From positions 36,686-98,173 of the forward strand of contig CAYTQI010000002.1 of the NCBI GenBank assembly GCA_964440235.1: a stretch of 61,488 nt of DNA, written 5' to 3'. This document shows, one piece after another, positions 3-61,488 of this stretch. The notes beneath the pieces are model-generated. The model was not told the origin of the DNA and did not search any database. It saw only the letters and a list, made by a program, of their open reading frames with translations. How positions within the stretch are numbered: position 1 is the first letter of the stretch; every line of letters begins with the position of its first letter. The translations under genes were made by a program, and so were the position numbers. This stretch comes from an uncultured Planctomycetia bacterium. Its GTDB lineage: Bacteria > Omnitrophota > Gorgyraeia > JABMRN01 > RBG-13-46-9.

Positions 3-3000
3 ACACGAAAAAGTATCGCAAAAGAGGCGGGGCTTAGTGAGCTTACGATCACAAACCGAAAAAAAGCCAACCCCGAAATAAAAGCGGCTATAGAAAAGGC
101 ATTGGTAGAAAGAGAGCCGTTTTCCGGAGATGGAAAGTTGATCAAAGGCACGGGTTCGGGCAGTGTTTATACGAATTTTTTAGGGGCAGGAAATTTACAG
201 CACTGGGGTGGAAAGTTGTTGCAATTGTTGGTGCGGTGTATAAGGAATTATTCCGGGATACTTGTGAAAAAACTTCACTACGGTGAAGTGGGAACGACAC
301 CTTCCTACCTGTTTTCGGAAAGGAATGATGCCCGGAACGGCCGGCCTCTGGCTTCGGCCGCGGAGGACAAGTTTCCCTTTGCCGCGGATAAAAATGCGCA
401 ACAAGGCCTTGTAACTTCAACTATATCAAAGGGTTCCGACGAAGTAAAACGTCCCCAAGTCAAAACCCAAGCCAAAATAGGTTATTTGCCAGGCAATATA
501 AATAGCGCACAGAGAGAAGACAGGGCTCCGGGCGATAGGTTGCTGTTCCCTATTTCCGGACAAGAAACGATGGCAATTTGGCCTGCGAGCTTTTCTTATC
601 ATGTTGATTCTATGCTGGCACCGTTAAAAGATAAGTCGTTTAGAGACATCGTGTTAATGGAACGCAGCCCGTTTATCAATGTCCGGCTCGTCAAGAAAAT
701 AATATTTCTTTTAATGACAAGAGAAGACGCCTTCAATCCTGAAACAGGGTACATGATAACGGCGGGCGGATGGAAATCGTTGGATTTACCTTTTATTTCC
801 GGAAGAAAAATTGACAAAATTGTGCGAACACAATCCTTCCCCGGGTTTATTAATGGTGAAGGCATGGATAATAAATTCGGAACAAAAAGTTTGGTAGTTA
901 TCAGAAAGAAATGGGGGAAGATTGTAGCGGAGATCCCTGAAAAAATAATGATAGAGGAGCTAATGCGCGAGGAGAACTTCGGCTTTCAAAGAAAGTTAGC
1001 CAGGGCGTTTAGGAGAAAACGCGGCGTTGTTGGTGTATGGTTTATTGATTACGAGAGATTACGCAACTCAATGCGCCTGCCTCTTGTTACAATTGAAAAT
1101 GCCCGTGATTTTGCCATGACCCTCCAATACAACAATACGAGATTATCGAGTGGCGCATTACTGGAAAAGGAAATTAAGAAAACGCAGGATTTGGCAGAGA
1201 TTGCCCGTAAGCACGGAAAAAAGTTTGTAGGCAGGTTTGATCTGCATGACTGGGGTTTTACCGATAAGACATATAGCTTACGCCCAATGCTTGGAGAAGA
1301 GGGGGAACTTGTTGGCGTTTTCAAAAGATTTTTTCCCGCGGAAAACTGGAGTGTTAAATATTTAAAAAACGAAAACAGGGGTAGTATTGACCCATCTACA
1401 AGTGATCCGTTTGGACCTACGCTTTATGTATATACTGGCACAGAAAATGATAAGGAAAAAATCCCCATAGGAAATATGGCGGAAAGAAAAGGGCTTTATG
1501 AAAAAGTCGCGCGTGAGACGCGGGAATTCATCGCTAAACATAGAAAAAATTTTTTGAAAAACGGTTTAGAAATAGTTACGTGTATGGGGCACGCCTTTGA
1601 GGTTAAACGTAGGTTAAAAAAATACGGGATCGAATCTGATTTGTTTTTCTGGATAGATGAGAAAATGCATTTGTATCATGTATGGGCCCGGACAGAAGAC
1701 GGTTACATAATCGACGCCTATACACTTGATGAAGGCATATCCCGAATATTAAGTTTTGATGAAGACAGGGAAAGCGAATATTCAGGTATTGAGATTGCAA
1801 AGTTTCCGGGGGCAAGCGAAGATTCGGAAAAATGGAACGCAATTGCGGCAAAACTAGAAAGAGAAGAATCGGCGTATAATAACCCGGCCGCGGTGAAAAG
1901 GACAAAAAGCCATGCCCTGCGCCCGGAAAGCCATCCGGGAAGCCGACATTTAAAAACGCCTTGTAAAGATTCCGGTACCTTGCTTTCCGCTAAAGCGCTT
2001 TCCGTTGCCTTGCCGGATAGTGTTGCGGCGGAAAAAAACACTTTCATAACAGGGGCGGAAAAGCCCGTAAGAGAAATTTTTTACGCGAAGATGATGAAGA
2101 TTCTTCAAAACCATGGTTTTGAAAATGGTTTTACCCGGGAAAACCTGATAGGAATATACTTTAGCGAATTTGGCGAAAGACTTTTTATCCGGGATGCCGA
2201 TACTTTCATACTTTATGCGTTAAAAATAGGCTGGATCCGGAATTACCCGGACAGAGAAAATGTTTTTATTTTTACGCAGGAGTGGGATAAATGGGTTTTA
2301 AGGGAAGAGGAGCCGACTTTTAACGTGCAGGACGCCGGAATTTTTTCAGATGAGGCGTTGCGTTCTTATTTATGCGAAATTATTCGGCCGGGCATGGACG
2401 TTGCCGATATGGGCGCGGCTCACGGACAAAGAGCGGTAGTGTCGGCGCGTTTAGGCGCCCGCGTAGACGCGATTGAAATACATAGAATGACCCTGCTTGA
2501 AGCTATTGAGAGGTTCAAAGCCCAGCCGGCTGAAATTCGCGGGCGTATTCGCGCGGTATTAAGCGATCTTTTTGAAAATTCTTTGTTGCGTGGCAAAAAA
2601 TATGACGTGATAGTTTTTTCACCCCCGAGAGTCAATGAAAAAAAACCATCACTCGCTTCAGATTTCAGAAGGATCATTGAAGACCATGAATTCAGGCTTT
2701 TAGGCCGCTTTCTTGATGAGGCAAAACTTCACCTGAAAGGCGACGGGAAAATAGTTCTGGCATACGGCATTGACGATGAAATCGGCGATGAAGACGGCCA
2801 TGTTTTTATGGGCGGAATGCAGACTTTGGCGCGCCTCGGCAAAGATGTATGGACGATGCGTAGGGTTTCTTCAGATCCCGATGCTTTTTTCGCGATTTAT
2901 GAACTCACCTTTAAAACGGCAAAACCGTTAGGATCCGTCACGCTTTCGGAAGGAAAGGAGTCAGCTAATCCAGCGCTCCGGCGGAAAACAGCGTGGCTTG

Positions 3001-4280
3001 AAAGTAAATACGGGGATAAGTTAAGGGATTGCTATACAAAATCCCCCGATGAGTTTTTACGGTTTACAGATCCGGATAATCTTGCTCAACCATTTTTCGC
3101 AGCGATAACTACGGGAGTATCAGGCGAAGTAATTGGTTCAGAAGAAGCCGAGTTTTGCAATTACATTATAGTCCTGGATAAGATAAGAAAAAAAGCCGCG
3201 TTAATTCATACGGATAATTATAAATTTTTGACGAATGCTGAAAATGCCTTGAAAAAAACCTGTAAAATGCTGGATCTTGTTTTGGGAGAAAGAGATTATA
3301 TAGAAAAAAATACTTTAGCAATTATCGCGAAAAGGCCGGCTATATCCGGGGAAATATCCGACGTCACCGCTTCTAAGATTGAGGCACTGTTCAAAAAAGC
3401 CGCTAATAATCTTGGCCTCCCGTTGCTGGAAACAGATACAAGCAGGCACTGGATAAAAAATAAAGTAGTATTTACGGTAGATGAAGGATCGTTACTCGCG
3501 TTGTCCCCGGAAGGAACGGTTTTGCGCTCCATTGATATGTATGAGATGGAGAAAAAAGGCAGATTTGCGGAAAGAAGGCCGGTACTTCGTAACTTCAGTG
3601 AGCCTGAACAGCTGGCAGAGAACTGGAAAGAAGCGGCGATTTCTACGCTGCTTTCGGGAAGAAAAATCGCGTTGTTTTTCAGCCGTAAATTAAGGGGCTA
3701 TGATAAGCATCACCCGCAGCTGCGGGATGATATAGAAAAATGGAAAGAAAATATGACGCGAAAATACCCCCGCTCTCGCAGCTTGATGAACAATTTGATC
3801 ACAGGGGATTTTGAGACACTCGAAGAGCTGAATACGTCTCTGGAAGGGTTGCGGGAGGAGCGCGGGGTAGATTTAAGCGATCAAAGCAAAGATTTTATCT
3901 TTACATTCGAGCCGGAAAACGAGAAAGTTGGCGCGGAAAATCTACCGAGGGCATTAAGGCCCGTTTATATAAAAATTAAGGAAAAGAAAAATGGAGAATT
4001 CAGAACTAATGAATTCTATGATCCGAGCCTGGATATATTAACGATTTCGGTCATGGCCGCGTTTTTCGAACTCAATGCCGATGATATATATCGTATTTTC
4101 GAAGGTATCGGGATAAACAGGCGGAAACTCGAAGAAGATATGAACATATGCGGTATCGACGAAGATAAAAATGGAAACGCATTTCTTATCTTTACCGTTA
4201 TTCCGCGCGCAAAGGCTTATGAGCATAATGGGATGAGAAACCGCAACAAGGTCAGGGCGCAATTTACCCGCGCCGCATAA
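3..4280 (+). CDS. Large orphan multidomain protein, 5'-truncated by the window (>1425 aa): HTH, papain/transglutaminase-like C-H-D motif, class I SAM methyltransferase, CheD/YfiH-like C-H motif, C-terminal domain ending FTRAA
   Basis: The frame is open from base 3 (TRKSIAKEAGLSELTITNRKKANPEIKAAIEKAL precedes the ORF-track TTG at 102). Motifs: TCMGHA...HVW...YIIDA; DVADMGAAHG...DAIE...SDLFE...IVFSPP; EFCNYIIVLD...AALIH. Confidence 0.85.
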   Translation, partial: TRKSIAKEAGLSELTITNRKKANPEIKAAIEKALVEREPFSGDGKLIKGTGSGSVYTNFLGAGNLQHWGGKLLQLLVRCIRNYSGILVKKLHYGEVGTTPSYLFSERNDARNGRPLASAAEDKFPFAADKNAQQGLVTSTISKGSDEVKRPQVKTQAKIGYLPGNINSAQREDRAPGDRLLFPISGQETMAIWPASFSYHVDSMLAPLKDKSFRDIVLMERSPFINVRLVKKIIFLLMTREDAFNPETGYMITAGGWKSLDLPFISGRKIDKIVRTQSFPGFINGEGMDNKFGTKSLVVIRKKWGKIVAEIPEKIMIEELMREENFGFQRKLARAFRRKRGVVGVWFIDYERLRNSMRLPLVTIENARDFAMTLQYNNTRLSSGALLEKEIKKTQDLAEIARKHGKKFVGRFDLHDWGFTDKTYSLRPMLGEEGELVGVFKRFFPAENWSVKYLKNENRGSIDPSTSDPFGPTLYVYTGTENDKEKIPIGNMAERKGLYEKVARETREFIAKHRKNFLKNGLEIVTCMGHAFEVKRRLKKYGIESDLFFWIDEKMHLYHVWARTEDGYIIDAYTLDEGISRILSFDEDRESEYSGIEIAKFPGASEDSEKWNAIAAKLEREESAYNNPAAVKRTKSHALRPESHPGSRHLKTPCKDSGTLLSAKALSVALPDSVAAEKNTFITGAEKPVREIFYAKMMKILQNHGFENGFTRENLIGIYFSEFGERLFIRDADTFILYALKIGWIRNYPDRENVFIFTQEWDKWVLREEEPTFNVQDAGIFSDEALRSYLCEIIRPGMDVADMGAAHGQRAVVSARLGARVDAIEIHRMTLLEAIERFKAQPAEIRGRIRAVLSDLFENSLLRGKKYDVIVFSPPRVNEKKPSLASDFRRIIEDHEFRLLGRFLDEAKLHLKGDGKIVLAYGIDDEIGDEDGHVFMGGMQTLARLGKDVWTMRRVSSDPDAFFAIYELTFKTAKPLGSVTLSEGKESANPALRRKTAWLESKYGDKLRDCYTKSPDEFLRFTDPDNLAQPFFAAITTGVSGEVIGSEEAEFCNYIIVLDKIRKKAALIHTDNYKFLTNAENALKKTCKMLDLVLGERDYIEKNTLAIIAKRPAISGEISDVTASKIEALFKKAANNLGLPLLETDTSRHWIKNKVVFTVDEGSLLALSPEGTVLRSIDMYEMEKKGRFAERRPVLRNFSEPEQLAENWKEAAISTLLSGRKIALFFSRKLRGYDKHHPQLRDDIEKWKENMTRKYPRSRSLMNNLITGDFETLEELNTSLEGLREERGVDLSDQSKDFIFTFEPENEKVGAENLPRALRPVYIKIKEKKNGEFRTNEFYDPSLDILTISVMAAFFELNADDIYRIFEGIGINRRKLEEDMNICGIDEDKNGNAFLIFTVIPRAKAYEHNGMRNRNKVRAQFTRAA

Positions 4281-4462: not shown

Positions 4463-4514
4463 ATTTTTTGTAATTAAAAAGATTTAAAAAGTGTTTGTAA
4501 GGAAGGGGTTTGAA

Positions 4515-4874
4515 ATGAGAGAGTTAATATTCAAGAACCTGATGGCCCCCGCCGCGAAAAAAAGGGATATTTCAGTCGAGGAAATAGTGGAGAAGAACGG
4601 CCTGGTTTCCTCCACAACTAAAAGGTCCATATACTTTGTGCGCGGTTCTCACAGAATCAAGTCCAGGGATGAATTGAAGCACTGGATAGATCGGCGAAGA
4701 AAAAACGCGGGCTTGAATAAGAAATTTTTTCATATTCTACGCGAATATTCAGACCGCGACAAGAAAGACAAGCTAATGTGCAAGATGAGAGGTTCGTTCT
4801 ACGTGATTTCCGGTGAATCGGTATATAACATAGTTTTTGTGCACGCGATAAGGATAAGAATAAGTAGATCATAG
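4515..4874 (+). CDS. Hypothetical basic protein (~119 aa)
   Basis: ORF downstream of a good promoter. ATG at 4515 follows GGAAGGGG and is preferred over the GTG at 4491. No recognisable family. Confidence 0.7.
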   Translation: MRELIFKNLMAPAAKKRDISVEEIVEKNGLVSSTTKRSIYFVRGSHRIKSRDELKHWIDRRRKNAGLNKKFFHILREYSDRDKKDKLMCKMRGSFYVISGESVYNIVFVHAIRIRISRS

Positions 4875-5023: not shown

Positions 5024-5057
5024 AGCCCGCGAAAAATTTTTAAAACGGGGCTTTTGG

Positions 5058-5090
5058 GAGGGGCGTAAAGTTTACGCTCCTCTTTTTTTT
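5058..5090 (+). terminator. Rho-independent terminator
   Basis: GAGGGGCGTAAA-g-TTTACGCTCCTC followed by T8. Confidence 0.8.
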
Positions 5091-8590: not shown

Positions 8591-8729
8591 TTTTCACGGC
8601 GGGAATGCTTTATTAAATGCCGGGACGTAGCGCAGTTTGGTTTAGCGCGCTTGCTTGGGGTGCAAGAGGTCAGCGGTTCAAATCCGCTCGTCCCGACCAA
8701 CGGAATAGAAAACATTCCCGCCGGGAAAA
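8591..8729. repeat. 17-bp inverted repeat enclosing tRNA-Pro
   Basis: TTTTCACGGCGGGAATG (8591-8607) pairs with CATTCCCGCCGGGAAAA (8713-8729), 16 of 17 complementary. Confidence 0.8.
8621..8699 (+). tRNA. tRNA-Pro (anticodon GGG), CCA encoded
   Basis: Cloverleaf: acceptor CGGGACG/CGTCCCG, anticodon stem CTTGC/GCAAG with loop TTGGGGT, T-loop TTCAAAT. Confidence 0.97.
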
Positions 8730-25163: not shown

Positions 25164-28100
25164 ATGAAAAAAATATCGGCAATCGTTACGATCTTGTGCT
25201 TTTTATCGGGCAATGTAAGTTTTGCGTTTGATGCCGACATAAATAACGCGCCACATTACGGCGTTAACCTGGCGGCTAATTACGCTACCGATGATATCTT
25301 ACCGGGAGACCACACCATCGGCATGATAGAGCTTGAGATGCAGCTTAGGCTTATTGAGAGTAAACGCGGCCTGATTCCGCCAGGCGAGAGTGAATTAAAA
25401 GTGGAATTCTTAAAAAACGCCAGACAGGCAAAAACATTAGGGGACGCCGGTCAAATAAGAGTAAAACACGGCGAAAACAAAATTGATATTTATCCGGCCC
25501 AACTAAAACTTATTGATGACTTAATATGCCGCATTCCCGTATCCATAACGAGAGGCAATGAGAGAACAGAGGATTTTCGATTGCTGTTTTCAATCCGGCC
25601 GTTTGAAGATGACGGAAAAACAATATACCCCATAGCACCGGATACGGATGAAGCATTGCGGTTATTAAACGAAGCCGTTGAAAGAGAGGAAAATAATACG
25701 GGCGAAAAAACAAAATCCGAAACAAGGCGCCCGGAAACAGCTGACAGCGGCCCGGAATTAAAACTCGATGCGAGCGGTGAAATCAGCCATGACAATAAGG
25801 CGACGCGGAAAAGAACCGGCCCCGGCGGGCGCAAACGTGTTACAAGCGGAACAAAACTTGTTCCCGATGAAACTTATGTGTGGAGTGAAAAAAACGGAAT
25901 AGGCCTTTTTCGCAAAGGCAGCTTTCAAACGCGGCTTACAGTGCGTTTTTGGCGCGAAGATGGCACGTATCGTGACGTGGAACTGACAAAAGCCTCATTT
26001 CTTTCAGGTGGGCTTCAACCCCTTTATCTTGCTTTGCCCGAAGACATTACAGCACTTATGAATTCTTTGAGCATAGCTGATGATAACAAAGAAAAATACC
26101 AGGAAAAACGCCGTAAAATCGGCAAAAAAGCTAACGGCGTATTAAGGAATAGCCGAGGGCCCGCCGGCGACCATATTAGCTTCCAGGTCTTTAGTTTTTT
26201 TCAGCGCATAGAAGATTATAATGCTCCGAATGTTAGCGATGGTGAACTGACAAAAGCCGAATCTATAATTAAAAAAATAGAAGATGTTAGAAAAGCGCGG
26301 GATAACGGGATTTACGATCATTTCAGGCATGCCACATCCGTGGAGAGGCTAATTATTTCCCTGTTATTATCATTTCCTATCCAAACAGTACTTTCCGTTC
26401 ATTCGATTCGGAATTATATAAAAAAACAAGGATTGAATAATTTAAAGGCAACACTTAAGGGAAAATTAAATGCGCAGGGTAAAATCAAAGATGAAGTTAT
26501 AGAAGATATTATAACAGGAACGAAAAGATTATTTCGGGAAGAAAAAAGTAATACATACGGATGGAAAGCGTGGATTGCAAAACATCATTCCGAAGAAAAC
26601 CCTTTTGACGTAATCGAACGCTGGGTAAGGGACGCGATTCCGGTTGTGGAAAGCATCCTGAAGCACGAGCTCCTGGCGGATGATCCGGCAAATCCTGCCG
26701 AAGAACAGGGGCCTGGGATTATGAATGGCGTAACGCCCGAGGGAGGCCGGCCCGATAAGAGCGCCCAAGCGCCTACCAAACCCCGCGATGAAAGAGGCAG
26801 GTATAAGGAAGAAGAAGGAAAGAGCCCGGAAGGTATTTTAAAAGTTATCGCGGTATATCTGCCGCAGCAGGCACTTTTCACAGCGCGGGATATTTTTGAA
26901 ATATATAAGGCGCATTATGAAGAGCATGGATTTGAGGCTCCCGCGGAAAATTCCGAATCGGCGCTTCGCACAATAAAAAGGGATTTGCATGAAAAATCCG
27001 ATTCGCTTGTAAATCAAGGAATTTTAGAGATTTTTCCCGAAAGGGGTAAAAATGGAGAATATCTTTATCAATTAACGCGAAAAGGCGCAGCGAAAATTGT
27101 ATCGATAAGGGGTAAATATGAGGCGGAAAGGGAAAGGTTGGCCGGAACGGCAGCCCTTACGGATTTGGCGCGAAAAGCCGTTTTTGGCGAAATACAGCTC
27201 GATAAATGCCTAAAGCACGGCAATAAACCAGAATTAAAAAAAGAGCCGGAAGTTAGAGCTCAAATTCAAAAAGCGCGGCGAGAATTTAACCAATTACTGG
27301 CAACCGTTAATGACATTGACACACTCCGGCGCGTTCTGAACTCTTTAGAATCGTTTCAAAGCAGCGCAAGCGAAAAAGAGGGAAGCGAGAAAGGTTATTA
27401 TGCGCCTTATGTCGCACAGGCGCGGTTACGAATACTGAGTGTTCCGATAGGGCAATTAGGGTTTTCAGCAAAGGCGCGTAATGTATTAGAAAAGATAGGC
27501 ATTAAAAATCTCGGTGATTTGATTGAAAAAGGAATAACTGAAGAAGACATTTTGAAACATAGTAATATCGGCCGGAAAACTGTCAGCGAAATATACGGTA
27601 TGCTCGCGCGGCTCGGCGAAAAATTACCGCCTATAACAAAAGCCGATGTTTCAATAAAGGATGCGGGCCTTTCCGTAAGGGCTCATAAAGTATTGAAAAG
27701 TATGGGTATTAAAGATCCCGCCGAGTTGCTTACGAAGGGAATAACCGAAGAAGACATTTTGAAACACAGGAATATCGGCCGGAAAACTGTCAGCGAAATA
27801 TACGGTATGCTCGCGCGGCCCGGCGAAAAATCGCTGTTTACAGCGAACCAGTCCGGCGAATCTATAACCGGCACGGTTACGGGAGAATTTCCTACGGCAG
27901 ATCTCCTTCATTTAATGCCCGGTGAAAACGCGGGTGATGTGTCAGGATCCGCAGTGTCGTATACGGATAGAGAAAAAAAGGCGCTTGCGAAGTATGATAG
28001 AAACGGATTGGATAGAGAGCGCCTGGCGGAATCGTTAAGCGCGTTATTGACGAGAGAGGTAATAATTGATGACAATTCCGCGTTTATTTTTTCCGAGATC

Positions 28101-28505
28101 GCGACTTTCGGGCGATATAACGAAAAAAACGAGTATGAATTCGGATTGATAAGATTGCTTCCGAAGCTTGCGGAAGCCGGTATTAAGGTTGCGGTTATCG
28201 CAAGAAATGACGCGCAGCGAAATTTTATATCTAAACTCAATGAGGGAAAACCTGAAAGAGAGAGAATAGGGTTCGGTAATAGTATAGCCGAAATGAAACC
28301 CGATTTACAAGTAGCCAGGTGTTATTATCTAAAGGTCGAAAACGATGAGCCGGTACCGGGTGAAAGCTTAGGCTTTGTAAGCGTTTGCGACATAACGCAT
28401 ATCGTAAAACAAATCGTTAAAAATCTGGGCAGAGCCTGCGGTGTTGTCAACGAATTATTACCGGATCTATACCGCGCGGCACAAAAATTCAGTCAGGCGG
28501 CATAA
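25164..28505 (+). CDS. Orphan 1113-aa protein: signal peptide, winged-helix-like domain, two tandem RNA polymerase alpha-CTD-like domains, C-terminal domain ending FSQAA
   Basis: N-terminus MKKISAIVTILCFLSGNVSFA. Repeats GFSAKARNVLEKIGIKNLGDLIEKGITEEDILKHSNIGRKTVSEI and GLSVRAHKVLKSMGIKDPAELLTKGITEEDILKHRNIGRKTVSEI match the alpha-CTD pattern LSVRxxNxLKxxGIxTIGDL...EEDLLKxxNxGRKSxxEI. Confidence 0.9.
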   Translation: MKKISAIVTILCFLSGNVSFAFDADINNAPHYGVNLAANYATDDILPGDHTIGMIELEMQLRLIESKRGLIPPGESELKVEFLKNARQAKTLGDAGQIRVKHGENKIDIYPAQLKLIDDLICRIPVSITRGNERTEDFRLLFSIRPFEDDGKTIYPIAPDTDEALRLLNEAVEREENNTGEKTKSETRRPETADSGPELKLDASGEISHDNKATRKRTGPGGRKRVTSGTKLVPDETYVWSEKNGIGLFRKGSFQTRLTVRFWREDGTYRDVELTKASFLSGGLQPLYLALPEDITALMNSLSIADDNKEKYQEKRRKIGKKANGVLRNSRGPAGDHISFQVFSFFQRIEDYNAPNVSDGELTKAESIIKKIEDVRKARDNGIYDHFRHATSVERLIISLLLSFPIQTVLSVHSIRNYIKKQGLNNLKATLKGKLNAQGKIKDEVIEDIITGTKRLFREEKSNTYGWKAWIAKHHSEENPFDVIERWVRDAIPVVESILKHELLADDPANPAEEQGPGIMNGVTPEGGRPDKSAQAPTKPRDERGRYKEEEGKSPEGILKVIAVYLPQQALFTARDIFEIYKAHYEEHGFEAPAENSESALRTIKRDLHEKSDSLVNQGILEIFPERGKNGEYLYQLTRKGAAKIVSIRGKYEAERERLAGTAALTDLARKAVFGEIQLDKCLKHGNKPELKKEPEVRAQIQKARREFNQLLATVNDIDTLRRVLNSLESFQSSASEKEGSEKGYYAPYVAQARLRILSVPIGQLGFSAKARNVLEKIGIKNLGDLIEKGITEEDILKHSNIGRKTVSEIYGMLARLGEKLPPITKADVSIKDAGLSVRAHKVLKSMGIKDPAELLTKGITEEDILKHRNIGRKTVSEIYGMLARPGEKSLFTANQSGESITGTVTGEFPTADLLHLMPGENAGDVSGSAVSYTDREKKALAKYDRNGLDRERLAESLSALLTREVIIDDNSAFIFSEIATFGRYNEKNEYEFGLIRLLPKLAEAGIKVAVIARNDAQRNFISKLNEGKPERERIGFGNSIAEMKPDLQVARCYYLKVENDEPVPGESLGFVSVCDITHIVKQIVKNLGRACGVVNELLPDLYRAAQKFSQAA
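27531..27831 (+). repeat. 94-nt direct repeat (27531-27624 and 27738-27831), 207 nt apart
   Basis: Four mismatches over 94 nt; encodes the C-terminal halves of the two alpha-CTD-like units. Confidence 0.95.
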
Positions 28506-48896: not shown

Positions 48897-48973
48897 GTCC
48901 CTGTAGCTCAGCTGGATAGAGCACAGGTTTCCTAAACCTGGTGTCGTCCGTTCGAATCGGACCAGGGACGCCA
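48897..48973 (+). tRNA. tRNA-Arg (anticodon CCT), CCA encoded
   Basis: Acceptor GTCCCTG/CAGGGAC, anticodon stem CAGGT/ACCTG with loop TTCCTAA, T-loop TTCGAAT. Confidence 0.97.
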
Positions 48974-55202: not shown

Positions 55203-55206
55203 ATTC

Positions 55207-55333
55207 TTAATCTTCGGGGCGAGGTGAAATACCTCGGCCGGTAGTGAAAGCCTACGAGCCCTGAACCTGCGCGGTTCGGGGCAGATCCGGTGAAATTCCG
55301 GGGCCGACCGTATAGTCGGGATGAGAGAAGAGA
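55207..55333 (+). ncRNA. FMN riboswitch (RFN element)
   Basis: ATCTTCGGGGCGAGGTGAAATACCTC..CCGG..GAAAGCC.ACG...GATCCGGTGAAATTCCGG..CCGAC.GTATAGTCGGGATGAGAGAAGA, upstream of ribBA. Confidence 0.95.
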
Positions 55334-55368
55334 CCGCTCGGATTTAAGCGAGTTATATGAATCGAATA

Positions 55369-55395
55369 AGCCCCGAAGAAATTCGGGGTTTTTTT
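55369..55395 (+). terminator. Riboswitch-controlled intrinsic terminator
   Basis: AGCCCCGAA-gaaa-TTCGGGGTT followed by T5, ending at the ribBA ATG. Confidence 0.85.
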
Positions 55396-56595
55396 ATGAA
55401 ATTTAACAGTATAAACGAAGTCAGCGAAGATTTAAAAAAAGGCAGGATCGTCGTTGTTATTGACGACGCTTCGCGCGAGAACGAGGGTGACCTTATTATG
55501 GCCGCTTCCAGAGTAACGGCGCCCGCGATAAATTTTATGGCCAAGTTCGGCAGGGGGCTTATATGTGTTCCGATGGAGAGAGGCGGCCTCGAGAGGATAA
55601 ACCTGAGCCCTATGGCAAGTGAATTAAAAGACCCGTACCGGACAGCATGGGCCATTTCAGTGGATGCCGCGAGGGGAATTACAACCGGCATATCGGCGCA
55701 CGACAGGGCCCATACCATCAAACTTCTTTCCGGAAAACGCTCCCGGCCGGACGATTTTATAAAGCCGGGGCACGTATTTCCGCTTTGCGCGAAGGAAGGC
55801 GGGGTCCTTGTAAGGGCCGGGCATACGGAAGCGTGTATTGATCTACTGAAGATGGCGGGGCTTCCGGCAGTAGGGGTTATATGCGAGATCATGAACGAAG
55901 ACGGGACAATGGCGAGGGCGCCTGAACTTTTGGATTTTGCCGGGAGGCACGGCCTGAAGATTTGCACAATAGAGAAATTAATTCACCACAGGCGTAAATA
56001 TGAAAAATTAGTGGAGAGAATTTCCGAAGCGGCCCTGCCTTCGAAATACGGAAAATTCAGGGCTTTTACCTATAGGTCAAAGATTACCGGAGATTGCCAT
56101 ATTGCCCTTGTAAAGGGGAATGTGGGGAAGGGGGCCCCTTTCGTAAGGGTTCATTCACAGTGTTTAACCGGTGATGTATTTCGCTCCTCAAGGTGTGACT
56201 GCGGGACGCAGCTTGAGAAAGGGTTAAACATAATCTCAAAGGCGGGAAAGGGTGTTTTGCTTTATCTGAGGCAGGAGGGAAGAGGCATAGGACTCGGCAA
56301 TAAAATGAAGGCCTATGAACTTCAGGATCATGGACTTGACACAGTCGAGGCAAACGAATATCTGGGATTCAAGCCGGATCTTCGCGACTACGGCATAGGC
56401 GCGCAGATCCTGGCCGACCTGGGGCTTAAAAAAATAAAGCTGCTTACAAATAACCCTCAAAAGATCGTGGGACTTGACGGGTACGGGTTGAAGATACTGG
56501 AGAGGATACCATTAGAGGTGAAACCTAACGGCGCGAACAGGAAATATTTAAAAACGAAAAAGGATAAATTAGGGCACGTTTTAAGGCACGCGTAA
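55396..56595 (+). CDS. ribBA: Bifunctional DHBP synthase / GTP cyclohydrolase II
   Basis: DDASRENEGDL, RAGHTEA, VRVHSQCLTGDVF, RCDCG, QEGRGIGL, LLTNNPQK. Confidence 0.97.
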   Translation: MKFNSINEVSEDLKKGRIVVVIDDASRENEGDLIMAASRVTAPAINFMAKFGRGLICVPMERGGLERINLSPMASELKDPYRTAWAISVDAARGITTGISAHDRAHTIKLLSGKRSRPDDFIKPGHVFPLCAKEGGVLVRAGHTEACIDLLKMAGLPAVGVICEIMNEDGTMARAPELLDFAGRHGLKICTIEKLIHHRRKYEKLVERISEAALPSKYGKFRAFTYRSKITGDCHIALVKGNVGKGAPFVRVHSQCLTGDVFRSSRCDCGTQLEKGLNIISKAGKGVLLYLRQEGRGIGLGNKMKAYELQDHGLDTVEANEYLGFKPDLRDYGIGAQILADLGLKKIKLLTNNPQKIVGLDGYGLKILERIPLEVKPNGANRKYLKTKKDKLGHVLRHA

Positions 56596-61412: not shown

Positions 61413-61488
61413 CGGGAAGTAGCGCAGTTTGGCTAGCGCGCTTGGTTCGGGACCAAGAGGTCGCGGGTTCAAATCCCGCCTTCCCGAC
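61413..61488 (+). tRNA. tRNA-Pro (anticodon CGG), last bases cut by the window end
   Basis: Acceptor CGGGAAG/CTTCCCG, anticodon stem CTTGG/CCAAG with loop TTCGGGA, T-loop TTCAAAT. Confidence 0.96.

Follow-up and report, generated by a model that had tools for sequence, protein, structure and literature searches.

Giant mosaic proteins have been described from the bacterial phylum Omnitrophota under the names 'Archaeovorin' and 'multi-enzyme' proteins, and two preprints portray them as mosaics, about 80 % of them sequence singletons, that draw upon a palette of methyltransferase, HATPase_c, GNAT, HEAT, TPR and PPDK_N domains (bioRxiv 10.1101/2023.11.21.568195; 10.64898/2026.06.07.730766). Here we describe a gene from an uncultured Omnitrophota bacterium, the 3' 4.3 kb of which lie at nucleotides (nt) 3-4280 on the forward strand of a 61,488-nt stretch of chromosomal DNA (contig CAYTQI010000002.1; 'the window' denotes this whole stretch), and whose product is a series of shuffled, independently recurring modules joined in one polypeptide. 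We file the gene in the multi-enzyme class, as one of its small members, because its modules are shared with members of 2-7 thousand amino acids (kAA) and because the construction principle is the same. The likeness to class 1 of Nielsen and Lui (2026) consists in the same phylum, many enzyme domains and a sequence-unique chain; the gene lies in an Omnitrophota genome and encodes at least four enzyme-like modules. Unlike the published sets, which comprise proteins of at least 10 kAA or more than 30 kAA, 94 % of them with transmembrane (TM) or signal segments, the chain is at least 1.4 kAA long and begins with a helix-turn-helix (HTH)-like element, and its visible part neither reaches 10 kAA nor carries a TM or signal segment.

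A preliminary description, made by a model from the DNA sequence, had proposed an organisation like that of MARTX or polymorphic toxins. The resemblance is that several unrelated enzyme modules occupy one chain and that their combinations vary between relatives. Unlike MARTX, however, the visible part has no RTX repeats, no C80 cysteine protease domain (CPD) and no N-terminal trafficking domain, and there are no transporter genes downstream; unlike polymorphic toxins, the conserved end is the C-terminus, with the variable part before it, and RHS and haemagglutinin repeats are lacking. The earlier remark that RTX and RHS repeats are absent from the visible part was correct, as motif scans of the open reading frame (ORF) found neither RTX (GGxGxD) nor YD/RHS motifs, and repeat scans found no notable tandem DNA repeats and no internal protein repeats. 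Pfam searches of the ORF at E <= 1 returned a methyltransferase only, without the C80 autoprocessing domain, and no immunity-like gene was identified downstream, where the adjacent ORF of 127 amino acids (aa) has no match. Given also that a hydropathy scan of the visible 1425 aa detects no signal peptide or TM segment and that the gene sits in a housekeeping context, we do not uphold the comparison with toxins.

Mosaic construction of the chain

The frame read from nt 3, from which residue numbers are counted throughout, continues for 1425 codons to its first stop (TAA, 4278-4280), and on its 5' side it leaves the edge of the window. In an exhaustive HMMER search of 1.84 billion (1.84e9) representative proteins with residues 226-1425, there were 232 matches at E <= 1e-3 and 17 at E <= 1e-30, each aligning to a single segment of the query; E-values of homologues ranged from 1e-14 to 1e-57 according to segment, and there was no full-length homologue among these representatives. 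Pattern scans with the ORF over GTDB genomes and JGI metagenomes gave no relative, while a word-indexed protein search with the full ORF returned only P0001, the public entry for this same gene, and was blind to known relatives of modules B and E.

Re-mapping with the whole frame set the module borders. After the HTH-like element (residues 1-35, nt 3-107) and a Gly/Ser/Ala-rich region (residues 36-175, nt 108-527), module A occupies residues 176-494 (nt 528-1484) and is defined by ten homologous segments. It is followed by module B at residues 488-632 (nt 1464-1898), defined by homologues and a Cys-His-Asp core, and then by a linker whose composition is rich in Ser, Ala, Lys and Pro (residues 633-691, nt 1899-2075). 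Module C covers residues 692-1011, with a methyltransferase core at 771-985 that is apparent from homologues and matches to hidden Markov models (HMMs); module D covers residues 984-1192 (nt 2952-3578), as delimited by homologues, an AlphaFold2 (AF2) model and Foldseek; and module E, with 53 homologues and an AF2 model, covers residues 1183-1425 (nt 3549-4277). Modules C, D and E adjoin directly with no linker between them, and neither the Gly/Ser/Ala-rich region nor the linker has a homologue in the representative set. Four unrelated activities had previously been proposed for this chain; the regions concerned stand, but the number does not, since modules A (nt 528-1484) and E (nt 3549-4277) had been missed, which brings the count to at least six.

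Relatives of the individual modules are arranged in quite different ways. They range from 82 to 7299 aa, and for most of them the part shared with any other protein in the set amounts to less than 40 % of the sequence; only three of 149 have two modules in common with the query. In P0013, module D lies near the N-terminus and module A near the C-terminus, which is the opposite of the order seen here. All five modules are also found in proteins of 2-7 kAA. Every relative for which an organism is named is a protein from an Omnitrophota metagenome-assembled genome (MAG; five of five: MBU1125106.1, MDD5585196.1, MDD5439754.1, NQT22552.1 and MBN2453875.1). With no full-length homologue and with a module order that varies, the prediction that unrelated enzyme modules share one chain and are exchanged like cassettes is borne out, and comparison of relatives, which had been suggested as a check, gives no fixed domain order. 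We consider these features to be beyond chance because every segment has independent homologues in which the proposed catalytic residues are conserved. Those residues also lie where they had been placed (C527 at nt 1581, H559 at 1677, D571 at 1713, C1052 at 3156 and H1069 at 3207), and the motifs TCMGHA, HVW, YIIDA, FSPPR and FCNYIIVLD...AALIH are all found in the translation of the ORF.

Coding potential was measured as a codon and frame likelihood, with 18 housekeeping genes from the window as the training set, and was scored in 450-nt segments. The frame of the ORF is preferred in every segment, at 0.14-0.30 per codon compared with 0.34 +/- 0.06 for the housekeeping genes, and nt 102-263 taken alone are neutral, showing no frame preference. 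In the public database the gene is called from a GTG at nt 264 (P0001, 1338 aa), within the Gly/Ser/Ala-rich region, and there is also a TTG at nt 102. This call is probably too short, because the frame is open to the edge of the window and because residues 1-42 are homologous to the N-terminus of P0055, a protein of 3909 aa that also has module B, with about 60 % identity over 42 residues to its residues 36-77 (E = 7e-8, local set). The N-terminus of P0055 in turn matches HTH_24 with E = 3e-4 and 20.7 bits, just under the cutoff of 21.9. On the strength of this homology and this near-threshold score, the HTH-like segment that had been recognised at 3-101 is a reasonable call, of which the window holds the C-terminal half only; nt 3-107 would represent the second half of a winged-HTH-like unit that appears to be a true N-terminal feature of this protein class. 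Since this HTH-like beginning is homologous to the N-terminus of so long a protein, the start of the gene almost certainly lies 5' of window base 1, and translation from nt 264 instead is a minority possibility.

The enzyme-like modules

In module D, a Cys-His motif had been compared with the CheD/YfiH/CNF1 fold, and the comparison is confirmed at the level of the fold. An AF2 model built from a 14-sequence alignment (mean predicted local distance difference test, pLDDT, 91.7; predicted template modelling score, pTM, 0.89) has a beta-hairpin that opens with C1052 and closes with H1069, and when this model was compared with the PDB by Foldseek, the top match was CheD (2f9z_C; E = 1.1e-6, probability 1.0, TM-score 0.65 when normalised to CheD), followed by human NTAN1 (E = 1.3e-3) and then DUF152/YfiH. 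There is no Pfam match to CheD and no significant sequence or profile match in the PDB. The cysteine and the histidine are each retained in 13 of the 14 members and stand 17 residues apart in 12 of the 14, and the position six residues before the cysteine, a serine in the query, is S, D, N, E or Q in all 14. Among cysteine hydrolases of the CNF1/YfiH-like fold, CheD uses C27/H44/T21 and NTAN1 uses C75/H92/S69, and the toxins CNF1 and BLF1 are among the deamidases with this fold (PMC7022378). Module D is like CheD and NTAN1 in its fold, in a Cys-His pair 17 residues apart on a beta-hairpin and in a residue capable of hydrogen bonding six positions before the cysteine, where Thr21 stands in CheD and Ser69 in NTAN1, a candidate for the third triad residue that orients the histidine in this fold; it is unlike CheD in having 18 % identity, a C-N-Y motif, a variable residue at position -6 and a location within a chain of 1425 or more residues. 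On the evidence of the model the CheD-like fold is verified, and the natural interpretation is that module D is a putative Gln/Asn amidohydrolase.

For module B, a fold of the transglutaminase or papain type had been suggested from a Cys-His-Asp arrangement. The ordered set of residues is indeed conserved, but statistical significance is not attained, the family matches being weak. In an alignment of 17 sequences, W561 and G567 are invariant, D571 is retained in 16, H559 in 15, and C527 and H530 in 14 each; the histidine and aspartate are 12 residues apart wherever the triad is present, and the cysteine and histidine mostly 30-34. Transglut_core3 (PF13471), matched by two of 16 members at E = 0.013, is the sole Pfam family matched by more than one of them. 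It corresponds to MEROPS C96, the McjB-type peptidases that process lasso-peptide leaders and have a Cys-His-Asp triad. Module B resembles this family in its ordered and conserved Cys...His...Asp, in the G-H-A that comes after the cysteine, and in the motifs GI.S, H.W and G.IID; it differs in having no significant match, no lasso-peptide genes in its context and a multi-domain chain around it. The triad of McjB itself would be C150/H182/D194, with the same spacings of 32 and 12; a search of the literature for this numbering returned nothing. The top match to module B in the PDB profile search, APOBEC3G (E = 0.3), was rejected, as module B has H-A-F-E rather than H-A-E and no PCxxC. We regard module B as a putative transglutaminase-like or papain-like cysteine peptidase core, and think this assignment likely.

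Module C begins with an N-terminal extension (residues 692-770, nt 2076-2312) that is common only to P0002 (MDD5585196.1, Omnitrophota), where it forms part of a 47 % identical match spanning query residues 692-968. A possible winged helix had been placed here, at about nt 2090-2290; the extension has no Pfam or PDB match. The remainder (residues 771-985, nt 2313-2957) is a class I methyltransferase dependent on S-adenosylmethionine (SAM), recognisable from HMM matches and from its motifs, of which motif I reads DMGAAHG (nt 2406-2426) and motif IV reads SPPR (nt 2619-2630). The NCBIfam model PRK14968, of the HemK2/MTQ2 type, matches with E = 2e-8 and 33.8 bits against a curated cutoff of 162, and there are weaker matches to L3_gln_methyl, HemK2/MTQ2, the Pfam family BMT5-like, and RsmC, PrmA and HemK in the PDB. 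Relatives fall into tiers by motif: the closest (45-56 % identity) have F[SA]PPRxNE together with DMGAA[RH]G, the next have PPL.NE, and distant stand-alone enzymes have NPP[YF]. The acidic residues that bind SAM, E825 and D855, are retained among relatives. Module C is like HemK/PrmC, MTQ2, RsmC and PrmA in its class I fold motifs, these families being its best HMM matches, and unlike the HemK/PrmC-MTQ2 group in the wording of motifs IV and I and in scores far under the family cutoffs. The earlier identification of a class I methyltransferase with SPPR in place of NPPY is well founded on the PRK14968 match, the SAM motifs and the retention of this motif in the closest relatives; because those relatives keep [SA]PPR, the substitution is not decay. 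From motifs and profiles, module C appears to be a member of the HemK/PrmC-MTQ2 lineage, in a conserved sub-family whose substrate pocket has changed, and its target is probably not a glutamine amide. A coupling of the two neighbouring modules, from a deamidase (D) to a carboxyl methyltransferase (C) with the arginine of motif IV binding the carboxylate, was considered and dropped; modules C and D occur together in no other retrieved protein.

Module A, of about 320 aa, had escaped notice entirely. Its ten homologous segments, with E-values down to about 1e-45, occur in proteins of 322-5021 aa, and their alignment has invariant columns at S-x-D-L, G, P, D (in RDF) and D-L-H (in R.DLHDF). With no Pfam match and no sequence match in the PDB, it is a new domain family, enzyme-like in that the invariant pattern looks catalytic.

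Module E and its relatives

Module E has a fixed position. Each of its 53 homologues lies within 53 residues of the C-terminus of a protein, 13 of them exactly at the end; the proteins themselves range from 82 to 6334 aa. As a family, the Omnitrophota proteins that end in module E can be taken to extend from about 240 aa to more than 6000 aa. The final residue is alanine in 48 of 52 of these proteins and the final pair is SA or AA in 46 of 52; the query ends in ...FTRAA. It is unusual for a folded domain of about 230 aa to end in a free C-terminal dipeptide that hardly varies. We dropped the idea that the terminal AA is an ssrA-like degron for ClpXP or Tsp, the resemblance to 'LAA' tails being only superficial. 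The AF2 model describes an alpha/beta domain (pLDDT 81, pTM 0.81) with no fold match in the PDB (best Foldseek E = 0.03, TM-score <= 0.27) and no sequence match there, and nothing like it was found in predicted viral structures or in 2.9 million viral contigs. Model and searches together mark module E as a new alpha/beta C-terminal domain family that is the hallmark shared by one family of Omnitrophota mosaic proteins. Term searches of the texts of West-Roberts et al. and of Nielsen and Lui found no mention of this module, nor of the VWANPE leader described below.

The proteins that end in module E are otherwise diverse. A Pfam scan of 25 + 4 of them identified multiple methyltransferases, GNAT, HATPase_c, HEAT, TPR, PPDK_N, CheB and PIG-L deacetylase domains, a palette that matches the one published for giant proteins, including Pfam 'module 1'. 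Three or four carry sigma-70 regions 2 and 4 and three carry an XRE-type HTH, and these have no signal or TM segments. One relative of 3232 aa (P0007) combines module E with a CheB methylesterase at residues 1411-1572 and several methyltransferases. Enzymes of the chemoreceptor type (CheB, CheD and methyltransferase) seem to have been recruited repeatedly into such mosaics with no chemotaxis genes nearby, and there are none in the window.

Two kinds of N-terminal sequence recur among the relatives. The first is a leader of the form M-K-K-...-IIA.LLIAAF.AQDIVWA/NPE...STLQVPSFF (the slash separating VWA from NPE), found in P0005, P0007, P0011, P0018, P0020, P0023 and others, and also in tandem neighbours of module-E genes on metagenome contigs (L082, 1244-1984 and 2035-3501; L092, 1303-3000). 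It looks like a signal peptide with a cleavage site of the A-x-A type followed by a conserved mature N-terminus. The second, ...IIHIQDAHCN..AQ..I..I..YL....GI..V.LEGG, stands at the start of several relatives of 2.6-5.7 kAA, namely P0021, P0022, P0047, P0068, P0094 and P0108, that have module B or C and lack the VWANPE leader.

The genomic context of module E was surveyed at 13 metagenome loci (L081-L093). The genes there encode up to 3528 aa or more, with module E always last, and their neighbours include LigT, CinA, RecA, AlaS and HisD, in housekeeping synteny. At some loci further giant genes, with leaders or otherwise secreted, follow in tandem; at one, a TpsB (ShlB/FhaC) transporter lies 1.8 kb away, and an ORF6N protein is close to one module-E gene. 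No partner gene recurs and no mobile-element signature is seen at these 13 loci, and the notion of dedicated neighbours was given up, as only housekeeping synteny was observed. It is conceivable, if rather doubtful, that module E is an address tag of an Omnitrophota-specific recruitment system whose carriers (enzyme strings, giant membrane proteins, sigma factors or XRE regulators) are docked onto one shared machine, exported to a host or prey cell, or delivered to a shared protease, in which case the gene described here would be one interchangeable string of protein-modifying enzymes carried as cargo.

Chromosomal setting and interpretation

The gene is chromosomal and belongs to an uncultured Omnitrophota bacterium. 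GroEL encoded in the window shares 83 % identity with its counterpart in one Candidatus Omnitrophota MAG and 75-79 % with those in dozens more, other phyla reaching 74 % or less. Downstream of the gene lie gpsA, hom, thrC, apgM, cstA, lysC, citramalate/isopropylmalate synthase, valS, rluB, nadC, uvrB, birA, coaX, groEL, dnaE, hisS and aspS, all of them housekeeping genes, and G+C content and skews stay uniform from the gene through this 57 kb. Secretion and transporter genes are absent from the 57 kb downstream, and modules A-E were searched for in all other ORFs of the window and are absent from them.

In proposing what such a protein might do, we consider it fairly likely that, taken as a whole, it is a soluble mosaic of tethered protein-modifying enzymes within the cell, in which module E serves assembly, docking or turnover. 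The chain, longer than 1425 aa, runs from a winged-HTH-like element through modules A and B to a methyltransferase of the HemK/PrmC lineage with its [SA]PPR pocket, and on through D to E. Module B would carry out peptide-bond or isopeptide chemistry, either as a cysteine peptidase or as a transamidase; module C would transfer methyl groups onto a protein substrate; and module D would hydrolyse the side-chain amides of Gln or Asn. All of these activities would act within the cell upon a single protein or a small number of them, with the HTH providing a DNA-bound or partner-bound location and module E an assembly, docking or turnover role common to all members of its family. A soluble, cytoplasmic protein is suggested by the low hydropathy of the visible 1425 aa, where the maximum of the Kyte-Doolittle 19-residue mean is 1.22, by the HTH-like N-terminal element, and by the existence of TM-free sigma-70 and XRE-type HTH proteins that end in module E.

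Several observations weigh against this proposal. Module B of the query has no Pfam match and its PDB profile search yielded nothing relevant; the methyltransferase lacks the NPPY motif IV that the HemK family carries; and since modules C and D occur together in none of the other retrieved proteins, there is no support for a functional coupling of the two. The HTH-like piece could be untranslated, because nt 102-263 are neutral and the public call begins at GTG 264, while the true N-terminus, which lies outside the window, could carry a signal peptide or a TM anchor. Among the 53 module-E relatives, at least 19 have at their beginning a signal-like helix that ends in VWA/NPE, many have additional TM segments, and bioRxiv 10.64898/2026.06.07.730766 puts the membrane-associated or secreted share of Omnitrophota proteins of at least 10 kAA at 94 %.

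These last points lead to the alternative that the protein is exported, as a multi-effector delivered to the cell surface or into host or prey cells, module E being a folded C-terminal export or sorting domain and the enzymes its cargo; MARTX effector strings and the cargo of type IX secretion system (T9SS) C-terminal domains are the closest analogies. Besides the leader-bearing relatives, such a role would suit the published description of Omnitrophota as host-dependent episymbionts or predators, in which secretion or membrane anchoring is predicted for most of the long proteins; it would also suit the presence of CNF1 and BLF1 among deamidases of the module D fold, the attachment of module E to very diverse 'cargo' with a nearly invariant [SA]A-COOH end, and the TpsB transporter close to one module-E locus. 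We nevertheless think export unlikely. The visible 1425 aa show no signal, TM segment or repeats and begin with an HTH-like element, module E also terminates signal-less sigma-70 and XRE-HTH proteins, and there are no secretion genes in the 57 kb downstream, no recurring partner beside module-E genes and no immunity-like gene.

A true polyprotein, in which module B cuts the chain at low-complexity linkers and frees separate enzymes, seems to us less probable again. Its attraction is that the Cys-His-Asp set of module B is intact and conserved, that its nearest weak Pfam relative, Transglut_core3 or MEROPS C96, comprises processing peptidases, and that Ser/Ala/Pro-rich linkers lie beside modules; moreover, self-cleavage by peptidase domains was proposed for giant Omnitrophota proteins by West-Roberts et al. 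(bioRxiv 10.1101/2023.11.21.568195). Yet most module-E relatives lack module B, the linkers have no homologues and show no conserved cleavage motif, and between modules C, D and E there is no linker to cut.

We see very little likelihood that the gene is a polyvalent protein or a cargo gene belonging to a phage or to a conjugative or integrative element beside the housekeeping genes. An HTH joined to a methyltransferase, a peptidase and other enzymes in a single chain resembles the polyvalent proteins that Iyer, Burroughs and Aravind reportedly described in 2017 from phages and conjugative elements. The upstream side of the gene lies outside the window, an ORF6N protein is found near one module-E gene, and passengers of integrative elements are one reading given to the long proteins by Nielsen and Lui. 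Against this, PHROGs contains no match, module E is absent from the 2.9 million viral contigs and from predicted viral structures, G+C content and skews are uniform, and module-E genes elsewhere stand in syntenic housekeeping contexts. Finally, an artefactual origin of the ORF, whether by decay of a pseudogene, by chimeric assembly or by chance fusion of adjacent genes, is scarcely credible: the codon-frame signal is lower than in housekeeping genes and nil at nt 102-263, and no full-length homologue exists among the representatives, but 1425 codons are free of stops, the frame signal is positive in every 450-nt segment, none of the five modules falls short of its homologues, the catalytic residues are intact, two modules (D and E) are confidently modelled, and chains of many modules are usual among the relatives.

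Other features of the window may be noted briefly. Every large ORF over the 61 kb (1-61488) is on the forward strand, which for a piece of chromosome is a very pronounced bias; GC skew stays positive over the whole length and AT skew does so in all 2-kb bins except two, and the coding strand is purine-rich on this account. The 127-aa ORF at 4491-4874 on the forward strand comes next after the large gene and has no match in Pfam or NCBIfam. A strong terminator-like hairpin (5056-5084; 13 pairs plus a T-run) lies between this ORF and gpsA, for which reason the large gene and the small ORF may form one transcription unit. An ORF of 1113 aa (25164-28505, forward strand) has the unusual architecture of two copies of the C-terminal domain of the RNA polymerase alpha subunit at residues ~755-885; it is unannotated elsewhere, and a weak NCBIfam match to BREX PglW covers the same stretch. 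There are tRNA genes for Pro(GGG) at 8621-8699, Arg(CCT) at 48897-48973 and Pro(CGG) at 61413-61488, and a flavin mononucleotide (FMN) riboswitch (94.9 bits) at 55206-55336 on the forward strand, directly 5' of the ORF at 55357-56595.

Giant mosaic proteins are a signature oddity of the Omnitrophota, but with lengths of 10-150 kAA they all but defy experiment. In this gene, shuffled modules of that kind are brought together in a protein of about 1.4 kAA that we read as soluble, which makes it a tractable example; as the uncertainty of the borders is only a few residues, each module could be expressed and assayed alone. The combination of CheD-like, transglutaminase-like and HemK-like domains here, with CheB in a relative, suggests that modification of side-chain amides and carboxyl groups of proteins is a recurrent theme in the class. 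Module E unites small regulators, mid-size enzymes and giant proteins as one family, and together with its nearly invariant C-terminal dipeptide it offers a handle on the assembly, localisation or turnover of these proteins.

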